Source of the DNA: Acidimicrobiia bacterium
GTDB lineage: Bacteria > Actinomycetota > Acidimicrobiia > Spongiisociales > UBA11373
Direction of reading: 5' to 3'
Assembly (NCBI GenBank): GCA_040902765.1
Contig: JBBDWO010000028.1
Span: 43,946 to 107,945 of the forward strand
Length of the DNA: 64,000 bases
Within the stretch, counting starts at the first letter, position 1; every line of letters starts with the position of its first letter. The position numbers were made by a program, and so were the translations under genes. This document shows positions 49,781 through 55,312 of the stretch, piece by piece. Below the pieces are notes generated by a model that saw only the letters and a program-made list of their open reading frames with translations, made no database searches and was not told the origin of the DNA.

Positions 49781-49924
49781 CTAGACGCGTGCGCGTCTTC
49801 CGAGCAGGGCGCCCACGATCAGGAGCACCAGGCTCACGATCAGGAGCCACTTGAGGGCTCCGACGAACAGTCCCACACCGCCGACCACCAACGCCAGTAG
49901 GAGGATCAATATTGCGATCCCCAT
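49781..49924 (-). CDS. 47-aa hydrophobic small membrane protein (two predicted TM helices)
   Basis: MGIAILILLLALVVGGVGLFVGALKWLLIVSLVLLIVGALLGRRARV; its ATG overlaps the CsbD stop (TGATG); not in the ORF track because it is under 60 aa. Confidence 0.4.
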   Translation of the reverse strand: MGIAILILLLALVVGGVGLFVGALKWLLIVSLVLLIVGALLGRRARV

Positions 49925-50145
49925 CAGGTGTCGTCGTTCTCGTCGTCACCGAAGGCCGATTCGAATCGCTTCTGAATCGCCTCGACGGTCTCACCGGTCC
50001 GCTCCTTGATCCGGCCGACCAGAGCCTCGAAGTCACCTTCTGCAACCGTGAGGTCGTCATCGGTGAGCTGGCCCCATGTCTTCTTGGCGTGGCCCTTGAC
50101 CTGATCCCAGCGGCCCTGCCACTTCAGCTTTGTTTCCTGGTCCAC
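49924..50145 (-). CDS. CsbD-family stress protein
   Basis: KGHAKKTWGQLTDDDLTVAEGDFEALVGRIKERTG is a CsbD motif; GTG start after GGAGAG. Confidence 0.65.
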   Translation of the reverse strand: MDQETKLKWQGRWDQVKGHAKKTWGQLTDDDLTVAEGDFEALVGRIKERTGETVEAIQKRFESAFGDDENDDT

Positions 50146-50277
50146 AGGTCTCTCTCCCTGTTGGGTGCCAGGCTCAGGTACCCAACGGTGGGTGGCGGCA
50201 AACCTGGTGCGACGGTGCGGCGGGGGAGGAGGCCTTGCGACCGGTGGTACCCTTCCCGGCCGATCGGTGTGATCCAT

Positions 50278-52366: not shown

Positions 52367-53209
52367 TCAGAGTTCCGCGTCGAAGGTGTTGCAGGCGTCG
52401 GGACCGCCGCTGTTCATGCCCACGAGGAACCACTCCTGGCGCTGCTCGGATGATCCGTGCGTCCACGTTTCGGGGTTCACCTGGCCCTGCGTCTGCTCCT
52501 GAATCCGGTCGTCTCCCACGGCGGCGGCGGCGTCGAGTGCCTGGGCGAGTCGGGCGTCGGTGATGGGCTCGAGGAACCCGGTCGCCACCGCGTGACTTGC
52601 CCAGACTCCGGCGAAGCAATCGGCCTGCAGCTCGGTCCGCACCGAGTGGCCCTCGGCGCCTGCACCGCCTCCGGCAGTCAGGGTGCCCATCAGGTTTTGC
52701 ACGTGATGGCCGTACTCGTGGGCGATGATGTAGGCCTCGGCGAATGGGCCGCCCTCGGCACCGAGGCGCGTGCGCAGCACTTCGAAGAACCCCAGGTCGA
52801 TATAGATCCCGGCGTCGACCGGGCAGTAGAAGGGGCCTACCGCACTCGTCGCGTGGCCGCATCCGGTATTGACCCCCTCTTCGAAGAACGTCGTGGTGGC
52901 CAATTGGTACCCATCGAGCGCACCGCCCCAGTACGCCTGGATGCTGTTCACGTAGCCGACGATGCGACAGTCTTCGCGGGTGGCGGCGTCGGCGCCGGTC
53001 CGGCACTCGTCGGTGAGCTCGGTGTCCTGGTCGCTGCCCACCGTTTCGCCATCGAGGCCGGCAGGCAACTGCGCCGGGTCTCCGCCGAGCACCAGGAATA
53101 GCACCAAGGCGAGGATTCCGCCCAGGCCGCCGACCGCGATGCCGGCGCCCTTGCCGCGGCGATCGCGAACCTGGCCGGGATCGAGTTGTGCGTCTTCTCG
53201 GATCGTCAT
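52367..53209 (-). CDS. YpfJ-family putative neutral zinc metallopeptidase
   Basis: HEYGHHVQ zincin motif and N-terminal TM anchor; the overlapping 351-aa ORF in another frame is spurious. Confidence 0.7.
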   Translation of the reverse strand: MTIREDAQLDPGQVRDRRGKGAGIAVGGLGGILALVLFLVLGGDPAQLPAGLDGETVGSDQDTELTDECRTGADAATREDCRIVGYVNSIQAYWGGALDGYQLATTTFFEEGVNTGCGHATSAVGPFYCPVDAGIYIDLGFFEVLRTRLGAEGGPFAEAYIIAHEYGHHVQNLMGTLTAGGGAGAEGHSVRTELQADCFAGVWASHAVATGFLEPITDARLAQALDAAAAVGDDRIQEQTQGQVNPETWTHGSSEQRQEWFLVGMNSGGPDACNTFDAEL

Positions 53210-53412
53210 TGCACTCCAATCCGCTCGGACATCCGCTCGGGCCACGCTCATACCCCGACGCCACGGGTAGGAAACACAGACCAGGCGACGGTCACGCCTG
53301 CGACGGCGGTGGTAGACGCCGGACCGGGCCGACGCGAATGCTGCTCACATGCGTTTGAGCAGCCGTTTTTCTGGGTAGGTGCGCGGTCCCACCATGTCGA
53401 GGAGGTCACGAC

Positions 53413-53622
53413 ATGAGCATCGACCAGCGAGAAGCGGTCCGAGGCCGGCTAATGGGGAGTTCCCTCGGCCGAAAGCCACGGCTGCGCGAGGAAACCGCAG
53501 TGTGCAGCACCACGGGGTGTAGCACCGTGCTCAGCCGCTACAATCTCGGCAGCGACTGCTGCGTCCATGCCGTCCCGCGGTACCCGCGTCTCCGAGGGGA
53601 GCTCGTCCATGACGGTTCCTGA
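53413..53622 (+). CDS. Cys-rich small protein (C-x4-C ... CC-x-H), unknown function
   Basis: Strong RBS GAGGAGG; CSTTGCSTVLSRYNLGSDCCVHA; overlaps the next small ORF. Confidence 0.4.
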   Translation: MSIDQREAVRGRLMGSSLGRKPRLREETAVCSTTGCSTVLSRYNLGSDCCVHAVPRYPRLRGELVHDGS

Positions 53623-53827
53623 GAACACTGGCACGGGGATGCAGTGCCAGCACGATGCGTGTACCTGCCTCGTCGCCGATCGAGCGGACTTCTGTAGTGA
53701 GGCGTGCCGTATCGGCGGTCGACAGAGCGCACACTGTGGCTGCGGCCACTCCGGGTGCGAGGTCGCCGAAGACAGGGATCCCGATTCGGTACTCGGCGAG
53801 ATAAGCGCAGCGCCACCGGACAAGTGA
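53609..53827 (+). CDS. MymT-like copper metallothionein candidate
   Basis: MQCQHDACTC...CSEAC...HCGCGHSGC resembles mycobacterial MymT (CSHEGCGC...CHC) from memory. Confidence 0.45.
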   Translation: MTVPENTGTGMQCQHDACTCLVADRADFCSEACRIGGRQSAHCGCGHSGCEVAEDRDPDSVLGEISAAPPDK

Positions 53828-53980
53828 GTGCCAGGATCGGTGCGCGGCCCGACCAGAACCCGTCTGGCCCGGTGGCCCGATCCTTGCTGGCTGACGTCTG
53901 CCTTGGCCAACCGCTGCCGTAGGGCCAATTCTCGCCTCTCAGGCATCGGGTAGCCTGCTGGCGGTCCCGGGAGGAGCCTG

Positions 53981-55312
53981 ATGGCGTCGCTTGCCGAACT
54001 CATCGAAGCCGGGGACGTCGATGCCCTGCACGAGTGGTTGGGCGAGACGGGAGTCCTCGAGACCTCCGAAGAGCTCGCCCGGCTCGATCCCGACGACAAG
54101 GGCCTGGCGTTTCGCCTGCTGCCGCGCGACCGCGCCCTGGAAGTCTTCGAATTGCTCGACCCGCCGGACCAGCAGCAGGTGCTCGAGGGCCTTCGTGCCG
54201 ACCGGGTCCGTCACATCGTCGAGTCGATGGATCCTGACGACCGGGCCCGGCTGCTCGACGAGATGCCGGCAATGGTCGCCCATCGCCTCATCGGCCAGCT
54301 GAGCCCCCACGAGCGTGAGCTGACCAACGTGCTGCTCGGCTATCCGCCCGAGTCGGCAGGCCGGGTGATGAGCCCGGAGTTCGTCAGCCTGCACGCCGAC
54401 ATGACGGTGGAGGAGGCACTGGCGAAAGTCCGTCAGGCGGGGCGGGCCGCCGAGACCATCTACGCCCTGCCCGTAACCGACGGGCACCGCCGTCTCGTCG
54501 GCGTCGTGTCACTCAAGAAGCTGGTCTTGGAGGACACGGATGCGGTGGTCGGCGACCTGATGGCGACCGACGTGCACTCGGTCCGGGTGACCGATGACCA
54601 GGAGTACGCAGCCCGGCTCATCCAGGAGGCCGACCTGTTGGCGTTGCCGGTGGTCGACGGGGATGAGCGCATCGTCGGCGTGTTCACCTTCGACGACGCC
54701 ATGGAGGTCATCGAGCGTGAGGAGACCGAAGACATCGCCCGCCAGAGCGCCACGACGCCGCTGGGTCGCCCCTATATGTCGGCATCGGCATTCGGACTGG
54801 CCCGTGCCCGCGCCACCTGGCTGCTCGTCCTCATCGTCGCCGCCGGGCTCACCGTCCAGGTGCTCCAGCACTTCGAAGTCGAGTTGGCGACCGTGGTCAC
54901 GCTGGCCCTGTTCATCCCGCTGCTCAGCGGTACGGGCGGGAACTCGGGTTCACAGGCCGCGGTCGCAGTGATCCGGGCCATGGCGCTCGGCGAGGTGCGG
55001 TTCCCCGACCTGCCACGGGTCATCTGGCGGGAGGCACGCGTCGGCCTCATGCTCGGCCTCATGCTCGGCGCCGCCAGCCTGATCCCGGTCGGGCTGTTCT
55101 TCGGAAGCGACATGGCGACTGTGGTGGGGCTCACCCTGGTCGCCATCTGCACGTGGGCGACACTGGCCGGATCGATGCTGCCCTTGCTGGCTCAGCGGTT
55201 CGGCGTGGATCCCACGGTCGTGTCGGCGCCGCTGATCACCACGCTGGTCGACGCCACCGGGCTGATCATCTACTTCCTGATCGCCCGGGCAGTGCTCGAC
55301 TTGACCGGGTAG
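53981..55312 (+). CDS. mgtE: Magnesium transporter MgtE
   Basis: MgtE N-terminal domain, CBS pair and 5-TM C-terminal domain. Confidence 0.85.
   Translation: MASLAELIEAGDVDALHEWLGETGVLETSEELARLDPDDKGLAFRLLPRDRALEVFELLDPPDQQQVLEGLRADRVRHIVESMDPDDRARLLDEMPAMVAHRLIGQLSPHERELTNVLLGYPPESAGRVMSPEFVSLHADMTVEEALAKVRQAGRAAETIYALPVTDGHRRLVGVVSLKKLVLEDTDAVVGDLMATDVHSVRVTDDQEYAARLIQEADLLALPVVDGDERIVGVFTFDDAMEVIEREETEDIARQSATTPLGRPYMSASAFGLARARATWLLVLIVAAGLTVQVLQHFEVELATVVTLALFIPLLSGTGGNSGSQAAVAVIRAMALGEVRFPDLPRVIWREARVGLMLGLMLGAASLIPVGLFFGSDMATVVGLTLVAICTWATLAGSMLPLLAQRFGVDPTVVSAPLITTLVDATGLIIYFLIARAVLDLTG

Follow-up and report, generated by a model that had tools for sequence, protein, structure and literature searches.

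Two small, overlapping genes lie just upstream of mgtE, the gene for a magnesium/divalent-cation channel, in a 64-kb window (64,000 nucleotides [nt], 67% GC) from contig JBBDWO010000028.1 of an Acidimicrobiia bacterium. The first, open reading frame (ORF) A (53413-53622, plus strand; all positions are those of the window), is predicted to encode a basic CCCH zinc-ribbon protein of 69 amino acids that belongs to an unnamed family. The second, ORF B (53609-53827, plus strand; 72 amino acids), encodes what profile comparison identifies as a divergent metallothionein of the SmtA/BmtA superfamily. In the reading that we favor, and to which we assign a probability of roughly 0.6 as a whole, a stress promoter drives the coupled expression of the zinc ribbon and the SmtA-like protein, and a microhomology-mediated deletion has fused the latter to the end of a neighboring gene in this genome. 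To our knowledge, characterized bacterial metallothioneins come from few lineages: the SmtA/BmtA proteins of cyanobacteria, the metallothioneins of Pseudomonas, and MymT of mycobacteria. ORF B would represent a divergent subfamily with eight cysteines, two histidines, and a short hairpin, found in Acidimicrobiia and other metagenomic bacteria.

Both ORFs are real, conserved genes under purifying selection. They were compared with loci L001-L017, which comprise the contigs of ORF A homologues and the yield of one GTDB scan, and of which the named ones are Acidimicrobiia metagenome-assembled genomes. ORF A and ORF B are both kept in all 11 related loci that reach far enough, with ORF B directly after ORF A, and neither frame contains a premature stop across 9-10 divergent sequences. 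Ratios of nonsynonymous to synonymous substitution rates (dN/dS, Nei-Gojobori) run from 0.10 to 0.21 in ORF A and from 0.12 to 0.62 in ORF B. When all six frames were compared as a control, the pooled ratio of nonsynonymous to synonymous differences per site (pN/pS) was 0.26 for each of the two named frames, which are free of stops, versus 1.5-2.3 for four other frames; the codon-aligned antisense frames gave 0.35-0.44, yet contain stops. GC content at third codon positions (GC3) is only moderately raised (0.76 in ORF A and 0.70 in ORF B, compared with 0.88 in mgtE), so it is the comparative data that decide coding status. A first-pass annotation of the window had described two overlapping, cysteine-containing small ORFs upstream of mgtE, and these data (conservation in 11 related loci, pN/pS 0.26) bear it out; neither of the grounds for refutation that it had named applies, the ORFs being conserved and similarity to a metallothionein, SmtA, being found.

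The Shine-Dalgarno sequence, start codons, and promoter motif are all conserved among the relatives. All relatives have ATG or GTG at the position equivalent to the ORF B start at 53609, which lies inside the end of ORF A, whereas the alternative starts (53567, which would give 86 amino acids, and an ATG at 53639) are not conserved; the overlap in the window is thus 14 nt. It is 14 nt in most of the loci and a 4-nt ATGA in L001 and L016, an arrangement that suggests translational coupling. Automatic gene calling picked up ORF A in all of the related contigs and ORF B solely in L008 (partially), L016, and L017, from which it follows that the subfamily is systematically under-annotated. The earlier remark that small metal-binding proteins often go unannotated is thus apt for ORF B, and bmtA is likewise easily overlooked by annotation (PMC3323870).

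The assignment of ORF B rests on its ligand pattern and on profile searches. The protein contains the run CQHDACTC...FCSEAC...HCGCGHSGC, and its Cys/His core (C13 to C50; 53645-53758, plus strand) has the form C-x-H-x2-C-x-C-x8-C-x3-C-x9-C-x-C-x-H-x2-C. Its sole match in a Pfam scan was PF02069 (Metallothio_Pro), with 16.5-17.1 bits and an E value of 0.006-0.01 over profile positions 2-50 of 51. A word-indexed protein search with ORF B returned no homologue; an exhaustive search with HMMER through 1.84 billion representatives returned 32 proteins at E<=1e-3, mostly of 45-80 amino acids. One cluster member carries the name "Prokaryotic metallothionein" from its source, the remainder being hypothetical. 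In a 28-sequence family alignment with a mean column identity of 26%, ten residues (C13, H15, C18, C20, C29, C33, C43, C45, H47, and C50) are invariant in all 28 members, and 15 of the 28 match PF02069 at E<=0.1, none of them shown to reach its cut-off. A metagenome scan with this alignment produced no locus beyond those already in the set.

When the family profile was searched against the PDB, the SmtA structure 1JJD ranked first (E 0.0027), and Pseudomonas metallothioneins were matched more weakly. Profile-profile alignment of the family with SmtA (hhalign) gave a probability of 96.1%, an E value of 3.6e-9, and a score of 44.3 over 45 columns, against 24.3 for the best of 200 composition-matched shuffles; the core of ORF B is aligned to SmtA residues 2-53. 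The cysteines of the SmtA zinc-finger site, which we take, after Blindauer et al. 2001, to be C9, C14, C32, and C36, correspond in this alignment to C13, C18, C29, and C33 of ORF B, and none of these four varies among the 28 family members. ORF B and the known proteins (structures 1JJD and, from Pseudomonas, 6GV6, 6GV7, and 6GRV) are of comparable size, with a core of about 45 amino acids; they have the ligand order KCaC/H-x2-C-x-C ... [YF]CSxxC ... CGHxGC in common, both number histidines among their ligands, and the aromatic residue before the third zinc-finger cysteine is aligned as well. This four-Cys zinc finger, site A, is fully conserved in BmtAs, and the conserved Y31 and A37 of SmtA/BmtA make a CH-pi contact between hairpin and helix (PMC3323870). 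The counterpart of Y31 in ORF B is F28, a position where almost every family member has F or Y, and that of A37 is R34, which is variable. An AlphaFold2 (AF2) model of ORF B shows a beta-hairpin and short helix over residues 11-36, with a predicted local distance difference test score (pLDDT) of about 80. The first-pass annotation had headed the pair as a MymT-like metallothionein candidate; the term metallothionein suits ORF B, which is of that type and SmtA-like (96%), and not ORF A, which is basic and has one CCCH site.

By analogy with SmtA, the four cysteines C13, C18, C29, and C33 would form a zinc-finger site, and the four further cysteines and two histidines would complete a small metal-thiolate/imidazole cluster. 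From this ligand set we infer metal binding, most likely for the buffering or sequestration of Zn2+ (or of Cd2+ or another thiophilic divalent cation) under stress. Channels of the MgtE family can also conduct Co2+, which makes the buffering of adventitious cations beside mgtE plausible but speculative. A functional link of ORF B to MgtE or to ORF A would be in keeping with the position of its gene, which in related loci lies beside those of a CBS-pair protein and the MgtE divalent-cation channel. A protein of 50-70 amino acids is also a tractable object for testing how the ligand set affects metal stoichiometry, and the findings should be of practical use in improving the annotation of small metal-binding genes.

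Two neighborhoods were recorded among more distant relatives of ORF B. A 45-amino-acid family member is encoded 24 nt 3' of a gene for a P1B-type ATPase with two heavy-metal-binding HMBD domains (L018 1728-4138; L019 2-1134). A 50-amino-acid distant homologue (L020 1720-6766) is encoded between the genes for a MASE1-SpoIIE phosphatase and an RsbW-like kinase-sigma factor fusion; a gene for a STAS protein is nearby, and the partner-switching module is complete.

ORF B appears to be controlled by a general-stress promoter rather than by a metal sensor. Upstream of ORF A lies a predicted promoter of SigB/SigF type (53353-53378, plus strand), with a -35 element GTTTGA (53353-53358), a 14-nt spacer, and a -10 element GGGTAG (53373-53378), that is, GTTT-N16-GGGTA. 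The motif sits 36 nt 5' of the ORF A start. In an alignment of the 170 nt upstream of ORF A, the GTTT, the 16-nt spacer, and the GGGTAG are invariant in 10/10 loci, while the flanks vary. The motif occurs three times in the window where 0.12 occurrences are expected, a count reached by 0/100 shuffles. It fits the consensus of Mycobacterium smegmatis SigF, GTTT-N14-19-GGGTA (PMC4694148), and that of the promoters of Streptomyces SigB homologues, GTTTNN-N12-14-GGGTA[CGT] (PMC8346170). General-stress promoters of this kind are those of SigF in mycobacteria and of SigB homologues in Streptomyces and Bacillus, whereas the host belongs to the class Acidimicrobiia; dependence on such a sigma factor is a prediction from the motif. 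A scan with the sigma-70 consensus found no promoter.

Of the other two occurrences, one (50203-50179) precedes a csbD-like gene and one the divergent ypfJ-like gene. The same motif lies 5' of csbD in L002, 5' of the CBS-pair gene in L001, L010, L011, L016, and L017, and, in L023, 5' of a distant homologue of ORF A. The csbD gene of Bacillus subtilis, whose name PF05532 carries, is controlled by sigma-B. The set of three motifs, csbD included, suggests that the organism has a stress regulon of SigB/SigF type. The proposed promoter would then drive both small genes, translationally coupled, behind a short leader, and if this wiring is true, metal buffering becomes part of the general stress response.

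Other candidate elements upstream of ORF A fared less well. The first-pass annotation had pointed to a small inverted repeat at 53350-53371. Such a repeat, GCTGCTCA-N8-TGAGCAGC, does exist, about 10 nt farther upstream at 53340-53363, in overlap with the -35 element. Within 800 nt there are seven inverted repeats of at least 7 nt, of which this is one, and it is absent from all relatives aligned, and hence is no more than expected by chance. Being specific to the window, it finds no support as an operator. A "terminator" call in the same place consists of this inverted repeat plus the spacer of the promoter, whose richness in T is the sole reason for the score; no gene lies upstream on the plus strand that it could terminate. 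The Shine-Dalgarno sequence GAGGAGG of ORF A (53399-53405, plus strand), 7 nt before the ATG, falls in the loop of a potential CATGTCG/CGACATG pairing, CATGTCG-AGGAGGTCA-CGACATG (53393-53415; arms 53393-53399 and 53409-53415), which places the ORF A start codon in the stem. The arms are kept in 9/10 loci with a variable loop length, but covariation is absent and the folding energy does not beat that of shuffles (z -0.6 to -0.9); the hairpin is not put forward as a regulatory element. Scanning 52900-54300 against Rfam (E<=1) revealed neither a riboswitch nor a leader, and in particular no M-box ahead of mgtE.

For ORF A, the strong Shine-Dalgarno sequence and the pattern C-x4-C...CC-x-H are present, as first described, but the second cysteine of the CC pair is not conserved. 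Its potential ligands are C31-x4-C36 ... C49-C50-x-H52, of which only C31, C36, C49, and H52 are conserved, C50 being replaced by Arg or Gln in relatives. The sequence follows the pattern GRKPR ... C-x4-C-x-TVLSRYN-x4-C-x2-H ... RYPRLRG, and that of the family is GRRPK...C-x4-C-x-TVLSRYN-x4-C-x2-H...RFPRxRG, with R20, P22, C31, C36, T38, L40, S41, Y43, N44, C49, H52, and R61 invariant. Seven close homologues have 75-91% identity, and a profile search collected 327 proteins of 60-76 amino acids, none named or with a Pfam domain; the few of named source are from Acidimicrobiia. A search of PDB sequences with the profile gave only noise. The AF2 model has a pLDDT of 80.8, with 89-97 in the core. 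ORF A is thus placed, by its sequence, in a family of more than 300 small CCCH zinc-ribbon proteins, which this work delimits; the idea that ORF A is itself a metallothionein was discarded because it has a single CCCH site and is basic. From its charge and the GRKPR motif we would guess at a nucleic-acid-binding role.

Distant ORF A homologues occur without ORF B, and their neighborhoods have no common neighbor. Some lie directly 3' of genes for secreted repeat proteins (L004 813-2037; L005 2869-4156) that end in a motif, FFCNIH...G...TV, which by eye looks cupredoxin-like.

The window differs from its relatives by a deletion that is present in this sequence. L001, L003, and L016 all have the gene order ORF A, ORF B, CBS-pair gene (130-139 amino acids), mgtE, and the window is without the CBS-pair gene that relatives have between ORF B and mgtE. 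The junction (53762-53768, plus strand) is marked by GCCG/TCGCCG microhomology, with the metallothionein gene on its left and the 3' end of the CBS-pair gene on its right, and the deletion amounts to 464 bp relative to L003 (L003 906-1371). The ORF B tail VAEDRDPDSVLGEISAAPPDK and its stop (53763-53827, plus strand) come from the C-terminus of the CBS-pair protein: in a tblastn search with the L003 protein, residues 109-130 match this tail with 77% identity. The ORF B core continues, in frame, into the 21 final codons of the CBS gene, and all ten ligands are retained. The CBS gene's own stress promoter was also lost, and the native tail of ORF B, GAVGxGGPVQ(F/V/ML), which every relative retains, is absent here. 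A microhomology-mediated loss that removed the CBS-pair gene with its promoter and joined an intact Cys/His core to the CBS tail would explain this arrangement, which would then be a natural deletion-fusion allele.

A number of observations weigh against the view of ORF B as an SmtA-like metal buffer expressed with ORF A and altered by deletion in this genome. Its PF02069 score is under the gathering cut-off (33 bits), whereas authentic SmtA scores 75.2 bits, and ORF B is for that reason treated as a divergent subfamily. The full SmtA set of nine cysteines and two histidines, which holds a Zn4 cluster, is not present: ORF B has eight cysteines and two histidines, with C11 of SmtA replaced by His, no counterpart of H40 or C54, and one extra cysteine, which gives CxCxH in place of GCGH. 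Its hairpin is seven residues shorter. No metal sensor or metal exporter gene is adjacent to ORF B here, and the partner-switching context in L020 would also fit a regulatory zinc finger. With regard to the window itself, the loss of the GAVGxGGPVQ tail could have impaired this copy of ORF B; the deletion was seen solely in the window among 11 loci, an exact-match search for the junction in metagenome contigs did not find it, and it could be an assembly artefact. Another departure from SmtA is Arg in place of A37. The hosts also differ, the ORF B subfamily being found in Acidimicrobiia and other uncultured bacteria and SmtA/BmtA in cyanobacteria and pseudomonads, and so does the genetic setting: no link to SmtB or Zur was found for ORF B, which has instead a predicted SigB/SigF-type promoter and apparent translational coupling to a zinc-ribbon gene.

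Among the alternatives, the one that deserves most attention is that ORF B is a small structural zinc-finger regulator or adaptor, acting with the CBS-pair protein and MgtE or in sigma-factor partner switching and having ORF A as its partner, and not a metal buffer. Loci with a synonymous divergence (dS) >1 still have the order ORF A, ORF B, CBS, mgtE in common, ORF A and ORF B look translationally coupled, the C-terminal GAVGxGGPVQ tail is conserved within the clade, the ligands number 10 and not 11, and the distant homologue flanked by a SpoIIE-type phosphatase and an RsbW-sigma fusion, with a STAS protein near, would be at home in such a scheme. However, outside the clade the ORF B family is unlinked to mgtE, CBS, or ORF A; ORF A family members are found without ORF B; and one homologue adjoins a heavy-metal P1B ATPase. 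Family-wide invariance is limited to the Cys/His ligands, with no conserved surface patch, the pattern typical of metallothioneins. We consider such a structural or regulatory role the less likely, though still a live, alternative and retain the metallothionein-type assignment.

That assignment could be carried further. Within the general stress response of actinobacteria, ORF A and ORF B might be a dedicated pair of translationally coupled proteins for the handling of zinc, in which the metallothionein gives zinc to, or takes it from, the CCCH effector, and the CxHxxCxC subfamily of ORF B might be an evolutionary link between SmtA-type proteins and MymT, so far treated as unrelated. We put this forward as a long shot.

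Less probable still is the proposal that ORF B is a copper metallothionein of the MymT family, repressed by a CsoR/RicR-type sensor at the inverted repeat. MymT and ORF B are both small, Cys/His-rich, and actinobacterial, and they have an N-terminal CxHxxCxCxV and a later CxCG in common. In hhalign, the ORF B family and MymT align with a score of 23.1 and an E value of 2e-4, above the maximum of 200 composition-matched shuffles (20.2), but with a probability of only 46%, versus 96% for SmtA. A comparison of ORF B with NCBIfam, including the MymT model NF052418 (cut-off 80 bits), gave no match at E<=1, whereas M. tuberculosis MymT scored 99.6 bits with that model. MymT also lacks the FCSxxC helix and terminal HxxC, both present in ORF B, the former as in SmtA. 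The likeness to MymT that was first noted is hence limited to CxHxxCxCxV...CxCG.

The regulatory part of the proposal does no better. MymT is under the control of RicR, whose box is TACCC-N4-GGGTA, and RicR-regulated genes other than ricR are reported to be confined to pathogenic mycobacteria (PMC3944814); neither the boxes nor the confinement applies to the ORF B locus. The sequence of ricRp is TACCCCGCTGGGTA. No TACCC-N4-GGGTA box is present upstream, and the sole match to TACCC-N(3-12)-GGGTA is the palindrome TACCCCGACGCCACGGGTA (53251-53269), 144 nt 5' of ORF A. Its half-sites resemble those of RicR, but the spacing is N9 rather than N4, L003 does not conserve the palindrome, and it coincides with the promoter of the neighboring ypfJ-like gene. 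The inverted repeat is, as noted, unique to the window, and a tblastn search with CsoR and SmtB sequences, a crude test, found no homologue in the 64 kb. Control by RicR or CsoR, which the first-pass annotation had noted for MymT in mycobacteria, thus finds no counterpart here.

That one or both ORFs are chance non-coding frames in a GC-rich intergenic region is already refuted by the comparative data, for although the window is 67% GC with many long shadow ORFs, GC3 is below that of mgtE, and ORF B was both skipped by most gene calls and missed by the word-indexed search, no chance frame would be expected to combine stop-free divergence, a pN/pS of 0.26, ligands invariant across 28 proteins, more than 300 ORF A homologues, and conserved Shine-Dalgarno, start, and promoter sequences.

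The genes on either side complete the locus. Downstream, mgtE (53981-55312, plus strand) matches TIGR00400 with 410 bits and has the Pfam domains MgtE_N, CBS, and MgtE; its synteny is conserved. About 27 nt 5' of its start lies GGGTAGCC (window 53950-53980; L001 at about 1060-1090), with GGTTAGCC in L003 and no clear GTTT -35 element; GGGTAGCC may be a separate mgtE promoter. Upstream and divergent from ORF A is a gene for a ypfJ-like zinc metallopeptidase (52367-53209, minus strand; NF050010, 297 bits). Its longest ORF would start at 53251 and so overlap its own SigB/SigF-type -10 element (53255-53251). The ATG at 53209 has a GGAG Shine-Dalgarno sequence, with the NCBIfam match starting at residue 16, and is probably the true start. 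The predicted promoter of this gene (53251-53275, minus strand) is also found in L003, at 373-397 on the minus strand; if the start and promoter readings hold, a single divergent region of stress promoters would serve the zinc peptidase gene on one side and the metallothionein gene on the other. Farther upstream is the csbD-like gene (49924-50203, minus strand; PF05532, 57 bits).

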